From a virus (taxonomy: Duplodnaviria > Heunggongvirae > Uroviricota > Caudoviricetes), in IMG/VR virus record IMGVR_UViG_3300027608_000020: a stretch of 64,000 nucleotides of DNA; one strand, given 5' to 3'. A model generated the notes under the pieces. That model worked only from the letters and a program-made list of their open reading frames with translations. It searched no databases and was not told where the DNA came from. Position 1 is the stretch's first letter. Every line of letters starts with the position of its first letter. The position numbers and the translations under genes were made by a program. Positions 3,156 to 63,228 of the stretch are shown here, piece by piece.

Positions 3156-3184
3156 TTGACAGAGATAAATAAACACTATATAAT
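3156..3184 (+). promoter_or_regulatory. sigma70-like promoter TTGACA-17-TATAAT
   Basis: exact consensus hexamers with 17-nt spacer. Confidence 0.55.
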
Positions 3185-4428: not shown

Positions 4429-4504
4429 TGCGGGTAAGGTCTGGTCACTACTCCGGTCTCATAAGCCAGGAGCATCGTTGGTTCGAATCCAACACCCGCT
4501 ACCA
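4429..4504 (+). tRNA. tRNA-Met or Ile2 (CAT)
   Basis: loop ctCATaa; T-arm gttgg-ttcgaat-ccaac; 1:72 U.U mismatch; CCA. Confidence 0.6.
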
Positions 4505-6349: not shown

Positions 6350-6582
6350 AGTTTTGTAAGTGTCAGCAAGTGAAGTCACGCTGTCTAGGTTTCTTCGAAG
6401 GACCAAAGCAGTAAAAGGCAAATGGGTTCAACTCCCACCCGCGGGGAACTGCGGAGGTCCGTAACGGGGACTACGCTGGATGGATCCCAAGTGATATCCA
6501 TCGTGCTCGAGGTCAGGCTAGGCGGCCGGTAAGTCCTGAATAAATCTACGATAAATGCGGCGTAGGCTTACAAATTCAATAT

Positions 6583-6658
6583 GTCCCTATCGTCTAGTGG
6601 CCTAGGACACCAGCCTTTCACGTTGGGTACACGAGTTCGAATCTCGTTAGGGACGCCA
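6583..6658 (+). tRNA. tRNA-Glu(TTC), second copy
   Basis: ccagc-ctTTCac-gttgg; TCGTCTAGTGG D region; perfect acceptor gtcccta/tagggac; CCA. Confidence 0.75.
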
Positions 6659-6674
6659 TATATAGGAGTAGATC

Positions 6675-6848
6675 ATGAAAACATTATTTTTTGAAAATGT
6701 CTTTAACAAAGAAAAATTCTATTGTAAAGACACCAAAGACATCCGTGTAATAGACGGCATAGAATATCTACGAGTTTTTAAAGATGGCACACAACGAGAT
6801 TGTCTAGTAAAGAAAGATAGTCTTAGAAAAGTACAAGAAAAGAAATAA
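6675..6848 (+). CDS. small hypothetical protein (57 aa) inside the tRNA array
   Basis: AGGAG RBS 6 nt upstream of ATG; MKTLFFENVFNKEKFYCKDTKDIRVIDGIEYLRVFKDGTQRDCLVKKDSLRKVQEKK. Confidence 0.3.
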   Translation: MKTLFFENVFNKEKFYCKDTKDIRVIDGIEYLRVFKDGTQRDCLVKKDSLRKVQEKK

Positions 6849-7101: not shown

Positions 7102-7193
7102 GCCAGCGAGACTTGGAAGTCAGAGAGGTCTTATAAGCCTTTTAGCGCCAGATTAGCGTTCTTGAGAGGGTTCGATCCCCTCCGCTGGTACCA
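7102..7193 (+). tRNA. unusual 92-nt tRNA-like gene (anticodon TAT? plus a second 5-bp/7-nt-loop hairpin in the variable-arm position)
   Basis: perfect acceptor gccagcg/cgctggt, A73-CCA, T-arm gaggg-ttcgatc-ccctc; internal hairpins gaggt-ctTATaa-gcctt and agcgc-cagatta-gcgtt; short D hairpin gact-tgga-agtc. Confidence 0.45.
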
Positions 7194-8939: not shown

Positions 8940-9013
8940 GCTCTTATAGTTTAATGGAAGAACACTGTCTTGGTATGACAGGAATCGTAGTTCGATTCTA
9001 CGTTAGAGCACCA
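8940..9013 (+). tRNA. tRNA-Thr(GGT)
   Basis: ctgtc-ttGGTat-gacag; T-arm cgtag-ttcgatt-ctacg; CCA. Confidence 0.7.
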
Positions 9014-9020
9014 AAAGGTA

Positions 9021-9049
9021 TTGACAATAAATTAGATTTACTGTATAAT
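9021..9049 (+). promoter_or_regulatory. sigma70-like promoter TTGACA-17-TATAAT
   Basis: exact consensus; precedes the rpoZ-like gene. Confidence 0.55.
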
Positions 9050-9071
9050 CAATACATAAAGGAATTAAACA

Positions 9072-9311
9072 ATGGCACGTATTACAAGTCAGTTAGCAGT
9101 TGAACAAATTGGTAATAGATACGATCTAGTATTAGTTGCATCTATTCGTGCCCGGGAATTAACACGGGGACACATGCCTTTGGTAAGTAAGAAAGGTGGG
9201 CCAATTGTTACAGCCCTACGAGAAATTGAAGAAGGAAAAATCGGAAAAGATTATTTGTTAAAACTCAAAAAAGACGCAAGTAAAAATTATCGCGGGTTAG
9301 AGAAACGGTAA
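9072..9311 (+). CDS. rpoZ: DNA-directed RNA polymerase omega subunit homologue
   Basis: ARITSQLAVEQIGNRYDLVLVASIRARE...TALREIEEGKI aligns with bacterial RpoZ ([28 protein letters not shown]...IALREIEEGLI); last 21 nt overlap the fMet tRNA. Confidence 0.7.
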   Translation: MARITSQLAVEQIGNRYDLVLVASIRARELTRGHMPLVSKKGGPIVTALREIEEGKIGKDYLLKLKKDASKNYRGLEKR

Positions 9312-9364
9312 CTCACGAGTCTCATAAGCTCGAGATCCTGGTTCGATTCCGGGACCCGCAACCA
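9291..9364 (+). tRNA. initiator tRNA-fMet(CAT)
   Basis: CGCGGG...CCCGCAACCA ends identical to E. coli tRNA-fMet, including the C1.A72 mismatch; loop ctCATaa. Confidence 0.75.
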
Positions 9365-9436: not shown

Positions 9437-9520
9437 TGCCCCGGTGGTGTAATGGTAGCCACGCTGGTCTTAGAAGCCAGTGTCGAAAGGCGTGTCGGTT
9501 CGAGTCCGACCTGGGGCACC
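9437..9520 (+). tRNA. tRNA-Leu(TAG), canonical class II (long variable arm)
   Basis: ctggt-ctTAGaa-gccag; long variable arm; T-arm gtcgg-ttcgagt-ccgac; A73-CCA. Confidence 0.7.
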
Positions 9521-9680
9521 AATAATTGATAGCTCTCGGCAGGTATCGTATATGGACGCATATACTACACGACATCCACTGGCATGGTGCGAAGTCTAAT
9601 ATAACTGCTGTTAGATGCTTTGGAACTGTTAGCGCAGGACTCCTAAATAGACACGTTGTCATAGACGGCGAGTGCTATCA
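9521..9680. repeat. about 160-nt segment bounded by a 13-bp inverted repeat (AATAATTGATAGC / GCTATCAATTATT)
   Basis: exact reverse-complement termini between the tRNA-Leu and tRNA-Ser genes. Confidence 0.5.
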
Positions 9681-9686
9681 ATTATT

Positions 9687-9776
9687 GGTGTGGTCCTATA
9701 ATGGTATTAGAGCAGATTGCTAATCTGTCGGTCGGCGTAATCCGGCTTCTGAGTTCGAGTCTCAGTCACACCGCCA
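9687..9776 (+). tRNA. tRNA-Ser(GCT), class II, second copy
   Basis: gcaga-ttGCTaa-tctgt; long variable arm cggtcggcgtaatccggc; T-arm ctgag-ttcgagt-ctcag; CCA. Confidence 0.65.
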
Positions 9777-10635: not shown

Positions 10636-10908
10636 ATGAGTCAAGTTAGAGCAAGTCATATTTTAGTGCCCACATTGGCAGAGGCAGTAGATTTAAAAGA
10701 GAAAATCTCTGCTGGGGAAGATTTTGCGGCAGTGGCCCGTAGTTTTAGTAAGTGCCCAAGCGGACAGAACGGTGGCGATCTAGGACAGTTTAGTACAGGT
10801 ATGATGGTTAAGCCTTTTGAAGATGCAACCTTTAGCCTGCCAATCGGGCATATTAGCGGACCTGTACAAACACAATTTGGATATCACATCATTCACCGTA
10901 CTGGTTAA
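10636..10908 (+). CDS. PpiC/parvulin-type peptidyl-prolyl cis-trans isomerase
   Basis: ASHILV...GGDLGQF...MVKPFEDA...GPVQTQFGYHII parvulin signature; AAGGAA RBS; ORF-track 5' extension overlaps the tRNA. Confidence 0.7.
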   Translation: MSQVRASHILVPTLAEAVDLKEKISAGEDFAAVARSFSKCPSGQNGGDLGQFSTGMMVKPFEDATFSLPIGHISGPVQTQFGYHIIHRTG

Positions 10909-19025: not shown

Positions 19026-19379
19026 ATGTCAGACTATCAGTTGGTCTGTTCTTTGATTAAAACTCAAGAACAAGTTGTTTACGATTACACCAAAAATAAA
19101 TGCAGTCTTATATTCACTGTATCCGTAATTAAAAACAAAGTTCGGTCTAAAAAAATCTCCACAGCAGTTTTCAAGTATGATAGAGATAACAAATGGTATC
19201 CGCATCACATTGAAGTATATTCCGGTTACAAACGAACGGGTGTTGCCACGGTGATGTACGACATTGTGCAAAGTGAGATTGACGGAGTACTAGTTCCAAG
19301 CGATGAACAAAGCGATGCGGCCCGAGAGTTTTGGCGTAACAGGTTATTGACAACTCCTCTGAATAAATATATACTGTAG
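19026..19379 (+). CDS. hypothetical protein (possible GNAT-like fold)
   Basis: 117 aa; RTGVATVMYD resembles the GNAT motif A region (weak). Confidence 0.4.
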   Translation: MSDYQLVCSLIKTQEQVVYDYTKNKCSLIFTVSVIKNKVRSKKISTAVFKYDRDNKWYPHHIEVYSGYKRTGVATVMYDIVQSEIDGVLVPSDEQSDAAREFWRNRLLTTPLNKYIL

Positions 19380-19394
19380 GTTATTGCTGTATGA

Positions 19395-19446
19395 AGCAAA
19401 GAGAAAAGTGTTCTGGACGGGGGTGCGAATCCCCCCATCTCCACCA
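19395..19446 (+). ncRNA. ssrA: tmRNA (ssrA) acceptor piece of a permuted two-piece tmRNA gene; 5' boundary uncertain
   Basis: tGGACgggggTGCGAATcccccCATCTCCACCA matches the canonical tmRNA 3' end (GGAC, T-arm, acceptor 3' strand, A73, CCA). Confidence 0.7.
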
Positions 19447-19516
19447 TAAGCATACTAGGTCGTTGAGTTAAAAAGTCGCATGTGATGCGCTCAGACTAAA
19501 ATAGTATGCTTTTGAT

Positions 19517-19722
19517 GGGGATGCATAGTTTCGACAGGGCAACAAGTAAATGAGTGGACAGCTCGGGAAAGCAGAACCCGTAGGATTGGGGTAACTCGGT
19601 CGTAGAAGCACAACACGTAAACGCAAACGACGAACAGTTCGCATTGGCCGCCTAACAGCCGCCTAGGGTAGGAAATACCTCGTAACAGAAACCACCAAGC
19701 CCACTTCGGTGGGCTTTTTTTT
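19517..19722 (+). ncRNA. ssrA: tmRNA coding piece (5' acceptor strand GGGGATG with G3.U70; tag ORF GCAAACGACGAACAGTTCGCATTGGCCGCCTAA = (A)ANDEQFALAA*)
   Basis: GGGGATGCATAGTTTCGACAGGG parallels E. coli GGGGCTGATTCTGGATTCGACGGG; tag 19623..19655 ends in ALAA and stops at UAA; ends at terminator 19697-19722. Confidence 0.7.
19697..19722 (+). terminator. rho-independent terminator (aagcccac-ttcg-gtgggctt plus T8)
   Basis: GC hairpin followed by a T-run. Confidence 0.7.
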
Positions 19723-42519: not shown

Positions 42520-45500
42520 ATGTCGTTTAATCCCTCTCATTCATTTTCAGGTAACGGCGTACCTGGTCAATTAACTGTTACATATACAACAGGGTCAACA
42601 TCCTGGAATATTGTTACACAAAGTTTACCAGGGCTTGCTACTTACGGCACCTTTCCTAATACACTAAACGCCAATACTATACAAACCCAAGGATTTAACT
42701 ATGCTTGGCCGTATAGAGGTGGTAAAAATCTGCCAACGTCCGGAACAAACTCTAAGGTACCATATGGTATATTAGGTGTTAGTACTATAGGTGTTGTATT
42801 TTTTAGCCCAAACGCAGGAATTAGCACTGGGGGAAGCAATGGCACAACCTGGACCGTAAACTTTGTTGACGCAGAAATATTTGGCGAAGACTCTAGCAGT
42901 GGAAGCCCAAATATCTCAGGCATATACCATTATGTCGATACAAGATTTATCAATGACGATTCTTGGGGTGCTATTTCTAATAGAACTTCCGGATATGTCG
43001 AATCAGATGGTCATAGCAAAATATTAGGTTGGGCGTTAGACGGATACCCTATCTACGGTCCATACGGATATTCTAATCCAGTAAGTGCTTCTAGTACAGC
43101 AACACTAATGGTTTCGGGTTACAGGACTACATCTAAAGTTAATCGGCCTGCCGCAAGAACACTAGTTGTTAACGGAACAGTAACTTCGGCTACATCATTC
43201 TTAGTTTATAGTGTATCAGGTATAGTGCCGGGAATGTCCATAACCGGCAATTCTATCACAACTGCCACTAAGGTTACAAAAATTATTGGTGCCAATATAT
43301 ATACTAACACTCCCGTGTCAATTGGTACAGGTGAAGTTATTAATGCATCGTTTGATTTAGGAACATTAGTCGAAGATTGGGATTATTTAACAAGCAACAC
43401 CGTTACCCTAGATCTATACAATGGAAGATATTGTGTAACTCCGGACTATCCTTTAGGCACCTATGCATATTTTGCCACACAAGATTCTAACGGTACTCCA
43501 ACCTTTCCATATTTGGTTGGTCCTTATTTTTATGGGGCGTTAACTGCGGATAGCAATAACTCATCTCTATCATCGCTAACTGCAAGTGCTGGGACGTTTT
43601 CCCCTACTTTTAATTCAACTATAACAAATTATCTATTAACGGTAGGTAATCTTACTACTAGTTTAACATTTACTCCTGTTTCGGCAAGTATATATTCTAC
43701 TATCCTGTTTAATACATCAACAACAGTAACATCCGGATCTGCAACACCAGTTGTACAATTACCCGTTGGATACACTACTAGTACCATTAGGGTAACTTCT
43801 CAATACAGAACAACTAGTACATATACTATAAGTATCAACCGAGTAAAAAGTCCCGACAATGCTTTACAAAGTTTATCATTTAATGCAGGCACATTATTTC
43901 CTGCATTTAGAAGCACAGTAACTACCTATTCATTAACTGTTGATACAGCAGTTAGCAAATTAGGAATAACTCCAATAATATCAAACCAATTTGCTTCAAT
44001 TGCCATTAACGGAAATACTGCAACTTCTGGTCTTGTCTATCTTGAAGATCTAGTTTATGGAAGAAATGTTGAAACTATTGTTGTTACTGCACAGGATTTA
44101 ACTACTCGAACTTATACTATTAACGTTTCTAGATTAAGTAATATTTCATTATTATCAGCTCTTTCGATTAGTGTAGGATCGTTTACTGCAAGTTTCAATA
44201 GTAACACATTTTTCTATACAGCATATCTTGCCAATACCATAACCACTGTTAGAGCTAATGCAACTTCGATTGATACCGCTGGAACTATATACATCAACGG
44301 AATATTGGCACAGTCAGGAATATTATCACAACCTATTAATTTAAAATTAGGTGTTAATGCAATTGATGTTAGAATTATTTCTTCAGACCAATCAACCACG
44401 CACTTTTATAGAATAACTATTAATAGAGGATTTAGCAGTACAGCAACATTAAGTTTTCTGTTACTTTCATCAGGTACACTTGCTCCGGCGTTTAGTTCAA
44501 CTATAACAAACTATATTGCTACTGTAACTAACTTCATATCAACTATAAACGTAACTCCTACAGCTTCTCAGGAATATTCGTATGTGGTAGTTAATGATCG
44601 AAATGTACCTCCGGGGCGCACGTCAGAACCTATTAATCTACTAGTTGGTAATAACAATATAGTTATTGCGGTTACCGCACCAGATAATGTTACACAAAAT
44701 ATTTACAATGTGGTTGTTAGAAGGTTGGGCAGTTCTAACTCTCGTCTTTCTAATTTTGTAACAAATGCAATATTAACTCCGCAGTTCCAGTCATTGGTCA
44801 CAAGTTATTCTGCAAATGTTGGTTATACAATATCATCGTTAAAAATTACTCCCACAGTAGAAGAAAGTAACGCCACTGTCACTGTTAATAATATATCTGT
44901 ACTGTCCGGCCAATCAACTGGTTCAATTCCTTTATCTATAGGAACTAACACTATACGAACTGTAGTACTTGCTCAAGATAGTATAACTACTTCTACATAT
45001 AGATTAACTGTTAATCGTTCTGCTAACTACGATAATTCATTATCTGTTGTTGATATAACCTCGGGTATATTGTATCAGAGTCCTACTCTCCAAGAAGGAT
45101 TTGTTCAAGATATAAACACGTATACCAGCTATGCCTCGCACTTTACCACATCAACAGATATATTTGTTGTGGCAAATGACGTAGGAGCTACATTAAAAAT
45201 TAACGGATCAACAGTACTTTCAGGTGCAACTACTACTGTGCCACTTATAGGTTATAACTACGTTAACTCTCTCACAAATAAAATTGAATGGGTTGGTAAT
45301 AACACTATCAGTATTGTCTGTACTGCGGCTGACCCGTCCTATGTTAATACAACAACATTATATATTACCAGGGTTGGTAGCAATATTTCAACTCTTACTA
45401 ATTTAATATTAAATGTAGGTACATTAGACCCTGCATTTAGTTTTAATATTAATGATTATTTTATTGGCCTTCCATATAATTTCACAACTCCATTCCAATT

Positions 45501-48351
45501 TAAACCTTTTGTAACAGATCCAACTTCAACCGTGTCAGTTAACAATGTTGGAGTAGCGTCCGGTACTTTCTCTGATCCTATTACAATACCTGTAGGTCTT
45601 ACTCGTATACCAATTGTTGTTAGAGCAAACTCGGGAGATAGTGTTACTACCTATAATGTGTTTATTGGGCGGGCGGCCGAAGGGTTCAGCACTTCTACCA
45701 ATCTAACTAGTATAGAACTAAGCACCGGATCTTATTACCCTGCATTTAATTCAACGGTAACTGTTTACAATTCTAATTTTACATACGATGTTTCTTCTAT
45801 AAAGATTAAACCGTTCAAATCGTCTACACGGGCAACTATCAAAGTTAATGGTGTGAGCGTTACATCGGGCGAATTTTCACAAGATATTCCTGTAGTAGTG
45901 GGCAATTCAACTGCTACTATTACAATAACCGCAGAAGATTTAATTACTAAACAAAGTTATTATATAAATCTTTCAAAGACAGGTAGCGCAAATTCGTATC
46001 TAAAAAACATCCATGTAAATTCAGGATTTTTAGAACCGTCATTTAACAAAGATATAACACAATATGTTGTAAACATTCCGAGCTCAGTAAGTACTGTTGC
46101 TATTAAATCGTTTGTTGATAATATTCAGGCTCAAGTTAGCATCGATACATTAGGTATAGTTCCGGAAAATTGGTCATTTCCTATCACTGTTCAAACAGGA
46201 AGCAATATTGTAAAAGTAGTTGTGCTTGCAGGTGACCTAATTTCAAGAACAATTTATCAAATTAACTTTATTAAAGGTAGTGAACAATTTACTGCACCGA
46301 TTGTTGCTCCACAACAACCACTTCCAACTCCTGTATGGACCACACCTCCTGGGTTTATCTATACTGCCACTGAATTAGTTTATTCTAGCAGAACTATTAA
46401 TGCATCAGGAGATAATATAGCTTACCGACTAATTTCTGGATCATTACCTAGTGGTATGTCATTGACTACGTCGTCGGGAAACATTGCCGGAATTCCAACA
46501 TCTGTATATCAAACTACAAATTCAACATTTGTTATTCGAGCACAAAATACCCATGGTGTAGCTGACCGAAAATTCTATATCGACGTTAATGGCCCAACAG
46601 CGCCAGTTATAACAACACCGGGACCAAAACCTACAATTGGGCCGAGTGGGGAACGCTTTCTAATCAATGGACAGTTTGTTAATTTCCAATTTACAGCAAC
46701 ATACGATGTATTGGCTCCAAATAAACCAATTGTGTTTTATATTGAAGACGGTGAAGGACAATTACCGCCTGGACTAACTCTTAGTCAAACAGGACACTTA
46801 TACGGACAAGTTCAAGATTCTCTTACTTTATTTTATAGGGCCGGTTCCAACGGAACCTATGATGCCGAAGGGTATGATATTAATCCTTACGAACACGAAA
46901 GTCAACAGGCATTTGGTGTAAGTGGACGTTATGTTAATAAAGTATATCAATTCTCCTTAACTGCGGCCAACGGATCTGCTAAGGTTAAAGCACAATATGC
47001 CATAGATGTTAATGATCCAACAACACTAATACCTAACGGAACTTATCCCGTGCCGCCGCAATGGATGACTCCGGCTAATTTGGGATCAGTACGATCAGGA
47101 ACATATCAAGTTATACAATTAGAAACATACGACTGCGATCCTGGTGCAGGAACAATTACCTATGATTGGAATATTGTTAATCAAAATAACTCCAGTATAT
47201 TACCGCCCGGATTAGAATTAAATCCAACAACCGGCGGCATAAGCGGTCGCATACAATATTCTCCTACGTATAGTACAACATACACATTTAAAGTTAGAGT
47301 TTCTAAATATAATATTCTTAAGAACCAAACACAATTTAGAGATAGAACATTTAGTCTAACAATTTTAGGAGCTGTACTGAGCAAAATGACATGGGTCACT
47401 AATGACATTGTCGGTGCAGTATATCCAGGCGAACAATCAGAATTAAGCATAAAATCAGTCCATGAAGATACCTACTTAAAAATCACATACGCATTACAAT
47501 CAGGAACATTACCTCCGGGATTAACATTTACTACAGATGGTGCTATTCAGGGTAAAGTAGTTTACGGAACTTCGGCAGGAACATATACGATTACAGTTAG
47601 AGCAACTGACAGTAATTCATCGAGCCAACTGGTTAAAACATTTAAGATTAATGTTTTGGCATACACTGGATCTCGATATACACAAATATTATTTCAACCA
47701 TTGTTGTCTAGTGCAGTTCGAGACCAATTTAATACATTTATCACTGACCAATATATATTCGATCCTAATTTATTATATAGACCGTACGATCCAGAATTTG
47801 GCGCACAATCTAAAATAGAGTTTGTGTTTGAATACGGAATAGAGCAACTTAATCTAGGTGATTATGTAGCGGCTATGCAAAATTATTTTTCTAGAAGAAA
47901 ACTTTATTTTGGTAAATTAACATCGGCGTTTGCTCTAGATAATACCGGAAATAAAATATACGAAGTTGTGTACGTTAAATTAACCGATAACATGATTAGC
48001 GATTCTGGACAAACTGTTAGCGAATCGGTAGAATATGACAATACTACTTTATATCCAAATAGTATAGATAACATGCGGGGTGCTTTAGAATCAATTGCAG
48101 ATGTAGACGAATATCTATTGCCAAAATTCATGAGAACTGTACAAGATTCTTCGGGCATCCCGTTAGGAAGAATATTATGCATGCCGTTGTGTTATTGTTT
48201 GCCCGGAAATAGCCAGACAATAATTAGAAGAATTGAAGCATATGGCATCGATTTTAAAACAATTAACTTCGATATTGATAGGTTAATTGTATTAAACACC
48301 CTGGACAATTCTGTTGCTAAATATTTGCTATTCCCCAATAGAGAGGTATAA
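42520..48351 (+). CDS. giant fibre/adhesin-like protein (1943 aa) with an N-terminal YHYH-like domain, at least 8 cadherin-like beta-sandwich repeats and He_PIG Ig-like repeats
   Basis: GIYHYV; repeated L..L.(S/N).G.L.P.F.S.(I/V)T.Y modules about 95 aa apart; LPPGL(T/E)(L/F) repeats. Confidence 0.7.
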   Translation: MSFNPSHSFSGNGVPGQLTVTYTTGSTSWNIVTQSLPGLATYGTFPNTLNANTIQTQGFNYAWPYRGGKNLPTSGTNSKVPYGILGVSTIGVVFFSPNAGISTGGSNGTTWTVNFVDAEIFGEDSSSGSPNISGIYHYVDTRFINDDSWGAISNRTSGYVESDGHSKILGWALDGYPIYGPYGYSNPVSASSTATLMVSGYRTTSKVNRPAARTLVVNGTVTSATSFLVYSVSGIVPGMSITGNSITTATKVTKIIGANIYTNTPVSIGTGEVINASFDLGTLVEDWDYLTSNTVTLDLYNGRYCVTPDYPLGTYAYFATQDSNGTPTFPYLVGPYFYGALTADSNNSSLSSLTASAGTFSPTFNSTITNYLLTVGNLTTSLTFTPVSASIYSTILFNTSTTVTSGSATPVVQLPVGYTTSTIRVTSQYRTTSTYTISINRVKSPDNALQSLSFNAGTLFPAFRSTVTTYSLTVDTAVSKLGITPIISNQFASIAINGNTATSGLVYLEDLVYGRNVETIVVTAQDLTTRTYTINVSRLSNISLLSALSISVGSFTASFNSNTFFYTAYLANTITTVRANATSIDTAGTIYINGILAQSGILSQPINLKLGVNAIDVRIISSDQSTTHFYRITINRGFSSTATLSFLLLSSGTLAPAFSSTITNYIATVTNFISTINVTPTASQEYSYVVVNDRNVPPGRTSEPINLLVGNNNIVIAVTAPDNVTQNIYNVVVRRLGSSNSRLSNFVTNAILTPQFQSLVTSYSANVGYTISSLKITPTVEESNATVTVNNISVLSGQSTGSIPLSIGTNTIRTVVLAQDSITTSTYRLTVNRSANYDNSLSVVDITSGILYQSPTLQEGFVQDINTYTSYASHFTTSTDIFVVANDVGATLKINGSTVLSGATTTVPLIGYNYVNSLTNKIEWVGNNTISIVCTAADPSYVNTTTLYITRVGSNISTLTNLILNVGTLDPAFSFNINDYFIGLPYNFTTPFQFKPFVTDPTSTVSVNNVGVASGTFSDPITIPVGLTRIPIVVRANSGDSVTTYNVFIGRAAEGFSTSTNLTSIELSTGSYYPAFNSTVTVYNSNFTYDVSSIKIKPFKSSTRATIKVNGVSVTSGEFSQDIPVVVGNSTATITITAEDLITKQSYYINLSKTGSANSYLKNIHVNSGFLEPSFNKDITQYVVNIPSSVSTVAIKSFVDNIQAQVSIDTLGIVPENWSFPITVQTGSNIVKVVVLAGDLISRTIYQINFIKGSEQFTAPIVAPQQPLPTPVWTTPPGFIYTATELVYSSRTINASGDNIAYRLISGSLPSGMSLTTSSGNIAGIPTSVYQTTNSTFVIRAQNTHGVADRKFYIDVNGPTAPVITTPGPKPTIGPSGERFLINGQFVNFQFTATYDVLAPNKPIVFYIEDGEGQLPPGLTLSQTGHLYGQVQDSLTLFYRAGSNGTYDAEGYDINPYEHESQQAFGVSGRYVNKVYQFSLTAANGSAKVKAQYAIDVNDPTTLIPNGTYPVPPQWMTPANLGSVRSGTYQVIQLETYDCDPGAGTITYDWNIVNQNNSSILPPGLELNPTTGGISGRIQYSPTYSTTYTFKVRVSKYNILKNQTQFRDRTFSLTILGAVLSKMTWVTNDIVGAVYPGEQSELSIKSVHEDTYLKITYALQSGTLPPGLTFTTDGAIQGKVVYGTSAGTYTITVRATDSNSSSQLVKTFKINVLAYTGSRYTQILFQPLLSSAVRDQFNTFITDQYIFDPNLLYRPYDPEFGAQSKIEFVFEYGIEQLNLGDYVAAMQNYFSRRKLYFGKLTSAFALDNTGNKIYEVVYVKLTDNMISDSGQTVSESVEYDNTTLYPNSIDNMRGALESIADVDEYLLPKFMRTVQDSSGIPLGRILCMPLCYCLPGNSQTIIRRIEAYGIDFKTINFDIDRLIVLNTLDNSVAKYLLFPNREV

Positions 48352-50029: not shown

Positions 50030-50326
50030 ATGAAACGAATTTATAAAACAATGCAGGGTAAAGAAATTGACATGGAAGCATTAATGGCCAAACACGAGAC
50101 CATGCCCGCAGTAGGTAATGTACGTGTTAATGCTCGAGGCGATGAACTAGGCCCAGATGGTAAAATTATTAAAACTAGAGAATCTGTTTTGGCAGAATAT
50201 TATGACAATGATCCTAGGACAGTATCCGACGAAGAACTGTCATTAAGTCAAGTAAAAATTAATACCCCTAAACGTCCAACTATAGAACCTGCACAACCTA
50301 AAAGTAAAATTAAGGAAACAAAATGA
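50030..50326 (+). CDS. hypothetical protein
   Basis: 98 aa. Confidence 0.4.
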   Translation: MKRIYKTMQGKEIDMEALMAKHETMPAVGNVRVNARGDELGPDGKIIKTRESVLAEYYDNDPRTVSDEELSLSQVKINTPKRPTIEPAQPKSKIKETK

Positions 50327-50700
50327 CTGTAAAAGGAACTATCAGGCCGTTAGGAAATAAGGTACTTATTTCTGATATGAATTTCGGCATGGATAAAACA
50401 AAAAGCGGTATTTTGTTACAGAGCGATGATGGTAAAAGTTCAGGTATTCATCCTCGCTGGGGGAAAGTGTTTGCTATTGGACCAGATCAAACAGATGTTG
50501 AAGTGGGCCAATGGATTCTTATGGAACACGGTCGTTGGAGTAGAGGACACAAGTACGAGGCCGAAAACGGCGAAATTATAGATATACGATTAGCCGATAA
50601 TAATGCTATACTGTGTGTAAGCGATGAAGCGCCTGACGATGCAATGCGTGTTAAAATTGGCGCCCTTAACTTGAATGTATCCGATGCACAACCAAATTGA
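50323..50700 (+). CDS. GroES-like co-chaperonin (Hsp10 / T4 gp31-type)
   Basis: IRPLGNKVLIS...KSGILL...GKVFAIGPD...VEVGQWILM matches the GroES mobile-loop and roof layout. Confidence 0.6.
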   Translation: MTVKGTIRPLGNKVLISDMNFGMDKTKSGILLQSDDGKSSGIHPRWGKVFAIGPDQTDVEVGQWILMEHGRWSRGHKYEAENGEIIDIRLADNNAILCVSDEAPDDAMRVKIGALNLNVSDAQPN

Positions 50701-51121
50701 TTTAAACAAATACAAAGATTTTGTAGAAGCCGTTACCAGCAAAGAAAGCAACGACCTTACCACATTCATGAACCGTATGGATGAAGTGGATGGGAATTAT
50801 ATTGGCGAAGGAGAACACGGTCCCGATACTAATGTTCCGTTGTTAATTACTGCATGTCTCGGGCTTGCGGCCGAAGCAGGGGAATTTATTGAAATTCCTA
50901 AAAAGATACTGTTTCAAGGAAAACCATTTACTGAAGAAAATCTCTTTCATATGAAAAGAGAGTTAGGTGATGTAATGTGGTATTGGATCAATGCATGCCG
51001 TGCTTTAAATCTAGATCCCAATGATGTTATTGCAGAAAATGTTAACAAACTTAAAGCTCGATATCCGGGTGGAGAGTTTGATGCCTTTTATTCAGAAAAT
51101 CGCAAAGACGGAGATCTATAA
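50675..51121 (+). CDS. MazG-like nucleotide pyrophosphohydrolase
   Basis: LGLAAEAGE ... KRELGDVMWY MazG motifs. Confidence 0.65.
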   Translation: MYPMHNQIDLNKYKDFVEAVTSKESNDLTTFMNRMDEVDGNYIGEGEHGPDTNVPLLITACLGLAAEAGEFIEIPKKILFQGKPFTEENLFHMKRELGDVMWYWINACRALNLDPNDVIAENVNKLKARYPGGEFDAFYSENRKDGDL

Positions 51122-54261: not shown

Positions 54262-55062
54262 TTATTCGGACTCCTTGTAGATCGATAAAACTTCCTTAAC
54301 AACTGGGTGACGCTCAACGTCTCTTGTTTCAAACCTTGCCATGGCAATCATACGATACTCACCTCCTTGTCCGTATAAATTGCAAAATTCTAGCAATCCG
54401 TTTTCCCTAGGTCGGTCTGCTTGATTCAAGTCTCCAGTAACTACCATACGACTATTGTTGCCTAGTCTGGTTAATAACATCTTCATCTGTGAGGGTGTGG
54501 CGTTTTGCATTTCGTCTGCAACAACAAATGCATTTTTAAAAGTGCGGCCACGCATATAAGCAAGAGGCGATATTTCTATCACATTATCTTCTAGCATTGC
54601 GGCAATTTCTTTTGGATGATAGTATTCTTCAAATACATCCATAATAGGTCTTGTCCACGGCTCCATTTTTTGATTTAATGTACCGGGTAAAAACCCGTGC
54701 TCTTCATCTACACTTACAGCCGGCCTTGTGATAATAATTTTGCTAATCACTCCCTCCTGGTAAAGTTTAATGGCCATCTGTACACCCAGCATAGTTTTAC
54801 CCGTGCCAGCTGGCCCGATTGCAAAAACTATGTATTTTCTGGGATTTTTCAACAGTTCGAGATAGGTTTCTTGTGCAAGATTCCTTGGAACTATTTGGAC
54901 TTGCGGCTTCTTTCTTTGAAATTGTTTAATTTCAATTAAGTTTTCGCCACGTTGATCAATACGTTGATCACGTTCTTTTCTACGTACTCTAGACAAATTA
55001 TGCCCCTTTTTTAAGAACGACCTGCAACAATATTTACATCCAATTTGAAAAAAGGCTTTCAA
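54262..55062 (-). CDS. phoH: PhoH-like ATPase (start uncertain; possible TTG at 54996 with AAGGGG RBS)
   Basis: FAIGPAGTGKT ... VVTGDLNQADRP PhoH signature on the minus strand. Confidence 0.75.
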   Translation of the reverse strand: MKAFFQIGCKYCCRSFLKKGHNLSRVRRKERDQRIDQRGENLIEIKQFQRKKPQVQIVPRNLAQETYLELLKNPRKYIVFAIGPAGTGKTMLGVQMAIKLYQEGVISKIIITRPAVSVDEEHGFLPGTLNQKMEPWTRPIMDVFEEYYHPKEIAAMLEDNVIEISPLAYMRGRTFKNAFVVADEMQNATPSQMKMLLTRLGNNSRMVVTGDLNQADRPRENGLLEFCNLYGQGGEYRMIAMARFETRDVERHPVVKEVLSIYKESE

Positions 55063-61846: not shown

Positions 61847-62713
61847 ATGCTAACAGACCATTACTCAACACTAGGCGTCCAAAAAGACGCTTCATACGAA
61901 GATATAAAAAAAGCCTATCGAAAGTTGGCTGGGCAACATCATCCCGATAAAGGTGGTGATGGCGAAATATTTAAAAATGTGCAAATTGCATACAGTATCT
62001 TAAGCGACCCTACTAGACGTTCAGAATATGATCGAAATCCGCGAGGATCAGATCCCTGGTTTGAAAATCAAAGAGCGCACCAGGCATATAACGGTATGCA
62101 TGTAAATCCAGAAGAAATGTTTGCACATTTTTTTAACCGGCCTCCAGACGTTGATCCATTTTCATTTTTTAGACAACGACCGCAACAGCCTAGAAACTTA
62201 TCAATTAATGTACAGACAAATATTACATTAGAAGAAGCGTTCTATGGTAGAGATTGGTTAGCGGAAGTAACACTACCTAGTGGAAGAAACCAAACTATCA
62301 ATATTAAAATACCAGCAGGTATTCAAGACGGTACCATGTTAAAGGTACAAGGACTAGGTGACGATTCACACCCTCATGTTCCAAGAGGAGACATTCATTT
62401 AACTGTGTCAGTTGCCGCACATAGAGGATTTGTAAGACAAGGCGACGATCTTGTTAAACAAATAAATGTTATGTGTGTCGAGGCAATACTGGGATGCAAA
62501 TTATCAATTGATACAATCGACGGTCGAACATTGGAAGTAACAATTAATCCGGGAACACAGCACGGACAGATACTAAGTGCGGCCGGATATGGTATGCCTA
62601 ATATTAACGACAACAGATTCAGAGGCAGAATGTTGATGCCTATTAATATTGAAATACCCACACAATTAACTCCCGGTCAAGTAGAGTTACTAAGTAAGTT
62701 TCATCAATCATAA
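61847..62713 (+). CDS. DnaJ-family co-chaperone (J domain plus DnaJ C-terminal domains, no zinc finger)
   Basis: J domain with HPD ([10 protein letters not shown]); CTD layout. Confidence 0.8.
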
Positions 62714-62721
62714 ACAATAAT

Positions 62722-63228
62722 ATGTATAAAGTAGTTAAATTCCCCAATGAAATTCTGCGAGAAAGGATGCCTGATTTTGATTTCAGTAATCCTATTGTAG
62801 ATCCAAAAGAGTTAGAAAAAGAAATGATCGAGACTATGATAGCTAATGATGCTATTGGTCTTGCCGCGAATCAAGTCGGTATTAAAACTAGAGTGTTTGT
62901 TATGGGTTCTAAAGAACATCCAGATAATGCTGTAGGAATTTTTAATCCGGTAATCATCGAATCCGGCGGTGATTCAATGGTTGATGATAGTGAAGGTTGT
63001 TTGAGTTTCCCAGGAATATTTGCTAATATAAAACGCCCCAAAGTTATTAAGGCGCAATGGCAAAATAGTTCGGGTGAAACATTAACAACCGAAATAGAAG
63101 GGTACACCGCTAGATGTTTCCTACACGAATTTGATCACCTTGAAGGTATTGTATATCAAGATCGTATTAGTCCCCTAAAATGGGCAATGGCAGTAAAAAA
63201 ATCAACTAAAACTAAAAGGAAATATTGA
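62722..63228 (+). CDS. def: peptide deformylase
   Basis: GLAANQ, EGCLSFPG, HEFDH motifs. Confidence 0.85.
   Translation: MYKVVKFPNEILRERMPDFDFSNPIVDPKELEKEMIETMIANDAIGLAANQVGIKTRVFVMGSKEHPDNAVGIFNPVIIESGGDSMVDDSEGCLSFPGIFANIKRPKVIKAQWQNSSGETLTTEIEGYTARCFLHEFDHLEGIVYQDRISPLKWAMAVKKSTKTKRKY

Follow-up and report, generated by a model that had tools for sequence, protein, structure and literature searches.

A homologue of the RNA polymerase omega subunit encoded in a tRNA array of an uncultured jumbo phage, with a 3′ end that overlaps an initiator-like tRNA gene

Of the subunits of bacterial RNA polymerase (RNAP), omega, the product of rpoZ, is the one least understood: although dispensable in the laboratory, it is universally conserved. 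The gene of proteobacterial omegas usually, but not by definition, lies in a gmk-rpoZ-spoT context. Parts of the host expression machinery that are encoded by viruses include phage sigma factors and, in huge phages, tRNAs, transfer-messenger RNA (tmRNA) and translation-related genes. Transcripts that carry both a tRNA and a coding cistron, with mRNA ends set by tRNA processing, are known from the metY-nusA-infB and tufB operons of Escherichia coli and from mitochondrial tRNA punctuation. Some jumbo phages (phiKZ/AR9-like) encode multisubunit RNAPs, which are made of split beta/beta′ homologues without alpha and omega (PMC7598289). The element analysed here is an rpoZ-like open reading frame (ORF) found in a tRNA array of the IMG/VR virus record IMGVR_UViG_3300027608_000020. 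The whole stretch of 64,000 nucleotides is called the window and all positions are given in it. L numbers designate related contigs or loci. The features of the locus are the following:

8940-9013, + strand: tRNA-Thr(GGT), which lies next upstream and anchors the synteny (ARAGORN; Rfam, 58.7 bits).
9021-9049, + strand: sigma-70 consensus promoter (TTGACA 9021-9026, 17-nt spacer, TATAAT 9044-9049).
9059-9063, + strand: Shine-Dalgarno site AAGGA, 8 nt before the ATG (read from the sequence).
9072-9311, + strand: rpoZ-like ORF of 79 aa, omega homologue (ATG start, TAA stop at 9309-9311).
9291-9311, + strand: overlap of 21 nt between the ORF and the tRNA (ORF, ARAGORN and Rfam coordinates).
9291-9364, + strand: initiator-like tRNA-Met(CAU) of 74 nt with encoded CCA (ARAGORN; Rfam tRNA at 9291-9361, 56.9 bits).
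9438-9776, + strand: tRNA-Leu(TAG), structured spacer RNA of 172 nt and tRNA-Ser(GCT) (ARAGORN and Rfam; fold of the spacer).

The product of 9072-9311 is clearly assigned, by sequence and predicted fold, to the RpoZ/omega family. An earlier note, made from the letters of the window, had described a 79-aa RpoZ-like protein and had proposed a search with the hidden Markov model PF01192 (RNA_pol_Rpb6). This model gives 59.4 bits (gathering cutoff, 26 bits; E 3.6e-16) and is matched from position 3 to 51 of its 53 positions (49/53 covered). The NCBIfam equivalog model TIGR00690 (rpoZ) gives 48.5 bits (cutoff, 23.6 bits). The curated cutoffs of Pfam and TIGRFAM are both surpassed about two-fold, and the predicted fold agrees, so that the description stands. 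The aligned blocks (MAR..., GNR[YF]DLVLVA..RAR, ALREIEEG) are core motifs of cellular omegas and are not of low complexity; the two outcomes that the note had named as adverse, lack of an RpoZ match and a likeness confined to low-complexity residues, are clearly not what was found. In a sequence search of the PDB, 23 of the 24 matches are bacterial omega chains and the last one is the archaeal Rpo6/K (E 0.77). The best match is the omega of Vibrio cholerae (E 1.3e-13); that of E. coli is matched over residues 1-62 (E 2.5e-12; 56% identity). The protein starts with MARIT, the E. coli one with MARVT. The AlphaFold2 model, obtained with 56 homologues, has a mean pLDDT (predicted local distance difference test) of 85.4 and a pTM (predicted template modelling score) of 0.72. 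Its four helices are at residues 7-13, 16-31, 44-53 and 59-76. Each of the best 50 PDB matches of the model by Foldseek is an omega chain of an RNAP complex (probability 1.00; template modelling score 0.5-0.8, maximum 0.79). The JGI pipeline labels such genes 'RNA polymerase subunit omega'. PHROGs include no omega family; the sole match there is insignificant and is to a tail entry. The GC content of the ORF (38.3%) is close to that of the window (39.3%), which indicates a fully ameliorated gene.

The promoter is predicted from a match of 12/12 consensus positions with a spacer of 17 nt, exactly as claimed in the earlier note. Its −35 box begins 8 nt past the 3′ end of tRNA-Thr and its −10 box ends 22 nt before the ATG. 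Nine perfect TTGACA-N16-18-TATAAT sites occur in the window, every one on the + strand, whereas chance would give 0.06 (starts at 3156, 3250, 9021, 16213, 22505, 27137, 31546, 37006 and 40881; span 3156-40909). These predicted promoters form an early-type pattern, driven by host sigma-70, over at least 38 kb. The position of the promoter upstream of rpoZ is kept in the alignment of the relatives. The order tRNA-Thr, promoter, rpoZ is also found in L001, L003, L004 and L005/6; the sub-lineage of the window keeps the order tRNA-Thr, consensus promoter, rpoZ, tRNA-Met. No terminator-like site was found on the + strand between 9364 and 9867, and the promoter at 9021 therefore probably also serves tRNA-Met, tRNA-Leu and tRNA-Ser in a shared transcript with rpoZ. 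No credible coding sequence was found on the minus strand of the locus. In the window, rpoZ is surrounded by tRNAs, small ORFs and genes for a radical SAM protein and a peptidyl-prolyl isomerase (PPIase); gmk and spoT do not flank it.

The last six codons of rpoZ and its stop codon (R G L E K R *) are nucleotides 1-21 of the tRNA; the earlier note had given this sharing exactly. The overlap covers the acceptor 5′ strand and the D stem and reaches into the D loop, where the stop codon falls 18 nt into the tRNA. An overlap of the same length (−21 nt) and frame is found in L001 and L002. In L003 the overlap is of 38 nt and the stop codon is the UAA of the anticodon loop. In L005/6, rpoZ has its own stop codon, followed by a spacer of 6 nt before the tRNA; in L004, tRNA-Met is missing downstream of rpoZ. 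The 3′ ends of rpoZ among close relatives are at +6, −21, −38 or −1 nt. The overlapping codons follow the sequence of the tRNA (RGLEKR in the window, SGMEKR in L002) and the rest of the C-terminal tail is unconserved. Because the ends vary, the shared codons are dictated by the tRNA and the tail is not conserved, the overlap looks like a tolerated by-product of extreme packing and not like a conserved device. Cleavage by RNase P at 9291 would leave an rpoZ mRNA without stop codon, which would then be a substrate of tmRNA.

The tRNA at 9291-9364 is best described, from its predicted structure, as initiator-like and not as a canonical tRNAfMet. It has a CAU anticodon, C1 opposite A72 and A11:U24 in the D stem (ARAGORN structure). 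The pairs of its anticodon stem are A29-U41, G30-C40 and U31-G39; only one of the three canonical G-C pairs (29:41, 30:40, 31:39) is present, hence the label. Identity to E. coli tRNAfMet is 58/77, versus 44-46 for elongator tRNA-Met and tRNA-Ile2. The acceptor stem is that of E. coli tRNAfMet in 6/7 pairs, pair 7:66 being U-A instead of G-C. The earlier identification as tRNA-fMet is thus retained for the anticodon, C1:A72 and A11:U24, and is to be corrected for the acceptor stem, which is not fully identical, and for the anticodon stem. E. coli can live with G30-C40 as the only one of these three pairs, and au/GC/gu variants are natural (PMC5389676). The phage tRNA shares CAU, C1:A72, A11:U24 and G30-C40 with bacterial tRNAfMet and with the au/GC/gu variants of mycoplasmas and alphaproteobacteria. 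The A-U first pair of its anticodon stem also occurs in natural initiator variants (PMC5389676); its third pair, U31-G39 (pyrimidine-purine), differs from their G-C or G-U. Unlike in bacterial tRNAfMet, the 5′ third of the phage gene doubles as coding sequence. This class of tRNA-Met recurs in L001, L019, L020, L028 and L049. The window includes a second tRNA(CAT), at 4429-4504 (+ strand), which shares nearly all of its acceptor stem with the tRNA at 9291 and 56/77 positions with E. coli tRNAfMet. It has a T1:T72 mismatch, an irregular D arm and an irregular anticodon stem, and is under the Rfam tRNA threshold. Judging from these features, it may be a degenerate duplicate of an initiator-like tRNA.

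Relatives of the omega are encoded by at least 143 IMG/VR contigs (50-94% identity), several of which are 315-367 kb long. The 120 closest clusters at 90% identity are all on contigs of at most 355 kb. A search for representatives was done in a library of 1.84 billion proteins, proteins of 200 aa or more being dropped. The marker residues of the phage family (defined below) are found in 90 of the best 146 of the 150 listed representatives of clusters at 50% identity, and in 27 of the 30 at the top. The long proteins P0151 and P0210, with six 'stretches' in this search, lack the omega motif and were dropped. Among 79 IMG/VR omega loci, a tRNA is found within 5 kb in 52, within 100 nt in 24, and five or more tRNAs are found in 33. 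In other lineages, the omega ORF starts 14-27 nt past the CCA end of a tRNA and stops 6-9 nt before the next one. The spacer before the ORF then includes a Shine-Dalgarno site only and is too short for a promoter; the tRNA partners vary according to the lineage. The omega mRNA would thus be part of a tRNA precursor transcript, with ends set by tRNA processing. The neighbours tested in contexts without tRNA include neither gmk nor spoT; epimerase, metallophosphatase, dual-specificity phosphatase (DSP) and DUF2828 genes were found, which are also in the window.

Matches outside IMG/VR are few. A tblastn search of 50,697 deposited phage records gave nine matching records, of which three were opened and none was found to carry a genuine phage omega. 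'Acinetobacter phage MD-2021a' (CAKLQH020000003.1, 146712-154921) is a contig of an Acinetobacter chromosome with gmk-rpoZ-spoT. Campylobacter phage A11a (MG065691.1, 117719-120910, 'unverified') includes a ligB-gmk-rpoZ-spoT stretch that is 100% identical to the E. coli chromosome. The third record is an unverified faecal scaffold of 4.4 kb. The other records, not each checked, show the same 56.3% identity as E. coli/Salmonella records and are taken as host DNA. Among the records checked, 'phage' rpoZ matches in GenBank are therefore contamination or mislabelled bacterial contigs. Phage omega genes, which had been called rare, are so among the cultured-phage records checked, where none is genuine, but are common in metagenomic jumbo phages. 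A scan of 185,579 genomes of bacterial and archaeal species gave seven loci. Six are ordinary cellular omegas with at most 57% identity. The seventh, L085 (CAZEDO010000145.1; 60% identity), is on a 7-kb contig of a metagenome-assembled genome (MAG) of Lentimicrobiaceae; its omega (MGLSAEEAKNMIGNRYDLVL...) is essentially the same as those of the IMG/VR contigs L038, L041, L044 and L045. L085 probably comes from a phage and was mis-binned into a Bacteroidota MAG. No paper describing a phage-encoded omega or another host-type core RNAP subunit was found in the literature covered, which excludes most subscription journals, and two reviews of jumbo phages do not mention a phage omega. The protein itself belongs to a known family; its occurrence in phages is apparently undescribed in the searchable literature, and its mechanism is probably conventional.

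The phage omega is under purifying selection. The ratio of nonsynonymous to synonymous substitution rates (dN/dS) of the window gene is 0.15 with L001, 0.17 with L002, 0.23 with L003 and 0.10 with L006; the median over 212 informative pairs is 0.33. The synonymous rate (dS) between the window and L002 is about 1.5. The 79 IMG/VR ORFs that could be followed as far as their stop codon show no frameshift or premature stop; one more, L017, is cut off by the contig end. Two blocks, GNRYDLVL[IV]A..R.RE...G and VTAL.EIE.G..G..YL.K, are near-invariant across the family. The family differs from cellular omegas by T5-S6 (T-V in the latter) and by E29 (Q in gamma-type and M in Burkholderiales-type omegas). 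Its C-terminal tail has a basic character: the net charge has a median of +4 to +5, versus −3 to −32 in the gamma- and alphaproteobacterial examples. The C-terminal motif G.IG.EYL.K and the shorter loop were considered as phage-specific and rejected, as betaproteobacterial omegas share both; T5-S6 and E29 are consequently the sole remaining family markers. The short loop and the G.IG.E.LKK ending fit a betaproteobacterial ancestry. The N-terminal MAR is kept by the window protein and by 103 of the 120 closest clusters; in more distant members it is replaced (MTARY, MSNQ, MGLS) or preceded by 10-25 additional residues. MAR, which characterises a subfamily and does not define omega in general, is linked to ppGpp site 1 in Proteobacteria; PMC6416229 cites it as the part of RpoZ that binds (p)ppGpp.

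Compared with bacterial RpoZ of proteobacterial type, the phage protein has the same size class (79 aa here), core motifs and predicted four-helix fold. Its gene has a consensus promoter of its own and lies in a tRNA array, not in gmk-rpoZ-spoT; T5-S6, E29, the basic instead of acidic C-terminal tail and the 3′ end overlapping a tRNA are further differences. Like the phiKZ/AR9-like RNAPs, it is a jumbo-phage product related to a cellular RNAP subunit; in contrast to them, omega alone is seen here, probably for the host enzyme. In comparison with metY-nusA-infB, tufB and mitochondrial punctuation, the coding sequence overlaps the mature tRNA by 21 nt and RNase P would remove its stop codon. As with other virus-borne components of host expression, a phage here carries its copy of a core component together with tRNAs, a tmRNA, peptide deformylase and chaperone-like genes.

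The window is assigned, from its gene content, to an uncultured jumbo phage distantly related to Pseudomonas phage PA5oct. The clamp loader encoded there shows 54% identity to the PA5oct one and is more distant from those of Atu_ph07, SCTP-2 and XacN1. PHROG matches in the window include virion structural and tail proteins, and ARAGORN reports 37 tRNA genes and a tmRNA. When 1.1 kb and 24 kb of the window were compared by Megablast with the same 50,697 phage records, short tRNA matches or nothing came up, and no relative at the nucleotide level. A 75%-identical omega is found on a metagenomic contig of 354,680 bp with the same neighbour genes. PA5oct is the closest relative in culture; it lacks RNAP genes and is sensitive to rifampicin (PMC7318152). 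The tmRNA has a tag peptide ANDEQFALAA. Other features of the window are given below. The coordinates of proteostasis and expression genes were carried over from the near-identical contigs L081 and L098; those so derived are marked 'transferred'.

749-1984, + strand: ORF of 411 aa with the catalytic domain of the RuBisCO large chain (PF00016, 122 bits).
9519-9690, + strand: 172-nt spacer between tRNA-Leu(TAG) and tRNA-Ser(GCT).
About 10636-10908: PPIase (rotamase) (transferred).
19333-19719, + strand: permuted two-piece tmRNA of betaproteobacterial type (RF01850, 117.9 bits versus 84; RF04321, 119.1 bits).
42520-48351, + strand: protein of 1943 aa with a YHYH domain, nine cadherin-like beta-sandwich repeats and He_PIG Ig domains.
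About 50323-50700: Cpn10-like protein (weak match; transferred).
About 50684-51121: MazG-like pyrophosphohydrolase (transferred).
About 54262-55062, − strand: PhoH (transferred).
About 61847-62713: DnaJ (transferred).
62722-63228: peptide deformylase (transferred; circumstantial only for tRNA formylation).

The phage omega is probably an early-expressed functional subunit that joins the core of the host RNAP, where it supplements or replaces the host omega. Host sigma-70 RNAP would transcribe rpoZ early from 9021-9049. The gene would be the lead cistron of a mixed mRNA-tRNA transcript that runs into tRNA-Met and probably into tRNA-Leu and tRNA-Ser. The product would bind beta′ of the host core as cellular omega does, and would aid beta′ folding, core assembly and stability through a long jumbo-phage infection; its poorly constrained C-terminal tail would simply be read into the tRNA up to the first in-frame stop codon. 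RNAP assembly and stress modulation had been named as possible roles in the earlier note. The nine sigma-70 promoters and the relationship to PA5oct, which lacks RNAP genes, support a dependence on host RNAP. The PPIase, Cpn10-like protein, DnaJ, peptide deformylase, tmRNA and 37 tRNAs fit a phage that carries helpers for the expression and folding machinery of its host. Several points weigh against this proposal. Omega is dispensable in laboratory E. coli, so that the selective benefit of an extra copy is questionable, and we know of no new beta′ made during infection. Binding to beta′ is inferred, and a betaproteobacterial host is suggested by the tmRNA type alone. The window is only 64 kb of the genome, and a phage multisubunit RNAP could lie outside it. 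A cut by RNase P at the 5′ end of the tRNA would strip rpoZ of its stop codon, which is awkward for efficient expression. The fixed T5-S6 and E29 and the altered or extended MAR hint at a modified, and not merely supplementary, function.

The main alternative is rather doubtful: the protein would be a specialised replacement omega that re-tunes host RNAP (ppGpp site 1, sigma competition, docking of phage regulators) rather than aiding its assembly, and under which the early and tRNA promoters of the phage would stay active in hosts that are starved and under stringent control. Stable-RNA promoters are classic targets of stringent control, and the omega gene is repeatedly found inside tRNA operons (the 24/79 loci with a tRNA within 100 nt). 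The family-wide T5-S6 and E29, the basic C-terminal tail and the MazG-like pyrophosphohydrolase of the window argue in the same direction. So do the many lineages that swap MAR, the motif cited as (p)ppGpp-binding (PMC6416229), or add 10-25 residues; GafA of RcGTA is a known regulator of a phage-like element that acts through omega (PMC9638019). However, the window protein keeps MARIT and its site 1 is thus probably intact, the discriminator after the −10 box is AT-rich and not of the stringently inhibited type, and the analysis gave no phage partner. Moreover, betaproteobacterial omegas (P0161-type, Pandoraea) likewise have a basic short C-terminus and a shorter loop, features that may reflect ancestry instead of a new function. 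If a replacement of this kind were real, site 1 would have been abolished in the lineages whose N-termini are altered or extended, which would then be the most advanced in this respect. An unlikely explanation is that the overlap itself is a regulatory device: RNase P cleavage would give a non-stop rpoZ mRNA, rescue by the tmRNA of the host or of the phage would tag omega for degradation, and omega output would be inverse to tRNA maturation. The stop codon 18 nt inside the tRNA, the frame kept in L001 and L002 despite a dS of about 1.5 to L002, and the phage's own tmRNA (19333-19719) with its tag ANDEQFALAA agree with this, but L005/6 (own stop codon, 6-nt spacer) and L004 (no tRNA-Met) do without it, the overlap in L003 differs, and the shared codons are set by conserved tRNA positions while the omega tail is otherwise unconserved. 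A scheme that merges the two, in which a replacement omega co-expressed with phage tRNA operons reprograms host RNAP so that phage early and stable-RNA promoters escape stringency, the overlap in the window coupling its output to tRNA processing and tmRNA rescue, can be put forward only tentatively and is rather doubtful as well.

Two other explanations are much weaker. That omega belongs to a phage-encoded multisubunit RNAP, and not to the host enzyme, is very unlikely: some jumbo phages do encode beta/beta′-like RNAPs (PMC7598289) and 64 kb of the genome are visible, but the known enzymes of this kind are without alpha and omega (PMC7598289), the relative PA5oct has no RNAP genes (PMC7318152), the protein is of close proteobacterial type (56% to E. 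coli over 62 residues) and the window is rich in sigma-70 promoters. It is hardly credible that the gene is a non-functional hitch-hiker, i.e. a captured host gene fragment decaying in a tRNA array. The dispensability of omega in laboratory E. coli and a C-terminus that runs into a tRNA speak for it; the ORF is nevertheless intact with a promoter and a Shine-Dalgarno site, its dN/dS is 0.1-0.3, its GC content is ameliorated, and the core motif does not vary over the IMG/VR contigs, at least 143 in number, or over the clusters at 50% identity, of which there are about 90. The function as a subunit joining host RNAP thus remains the preferred one.

A second putative RNAP-binding protein was considered as a feature of the window and rejected, as its gene is absent from it. 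This gene, at 6538-6723 of the variant contig L082, encodes 61 aa with a SutA RNAP-binding domain (PF20661) and lies in a segment that replaces the window sequence after about 11641. Strains of the phage therefore differ in this second protein.

A diverse family of phage omegas under purifying selection implies that supplying or changing omega pays during infection. It adds a core transcription subunit to the host expression components of huge phages. The phage omegas (E29, basic tail, N-termini) are a natural set of variants for three proposed functions of omega (beta′ assembly, ppGpp site 1 and sigma competition), and their embedding in tRNA operons is a clean case for an mRNA carved from a tRNA precursor.

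The 172-nt spacer between tRNA-Leu(TAG) and tRNA-Ser(GCT) is closed by a perfect stem of 15 bp (CCAATAATTGATAGC at 9519-9533, complement at 9674-9688), in which the 3′ CCA of tRNA-Leu and the initial bases of tRNA-Ser are included. The predicted fold has an energy of −58.6 kcal/mol (z = −4.5). The spacer is 92% identical in L005/L006, where omega is 75% identical, and is absent from the closer relative L001. Compensatory double changes affect 4/57 predicted pairs (8 of about 16 substituted columns; two copies). A search of Rfam with the spacer gave no match. It is likely to be a stable structured RNA not yet described, or else a stalk for processing of RNase III type within the tRNA operon.

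Among the other tRNA genes, tRNA-Ile(TAT) is overlong (91-95 nt) in the window (7102-7193, + strand) and in L003 (816-910), L004 (1927-2017), L005 (3458-3549) and L007 (2968-3059). The window copy is not reported by Rfam at the gathering threshold. The additional length may correspond to an insertion, an intron or a mis-called gene.

The 1943-aa protein encoded at 42520-48351 is probably, according to its domains, a giant fibre or adhesin. The ORFs that follow it match tail-protein PHROGs. The product of 749-1984 is, according to its domain match, a RuBisCO-like protein, here encoded by a phage of a probable heterotrophic proteobacterial host.

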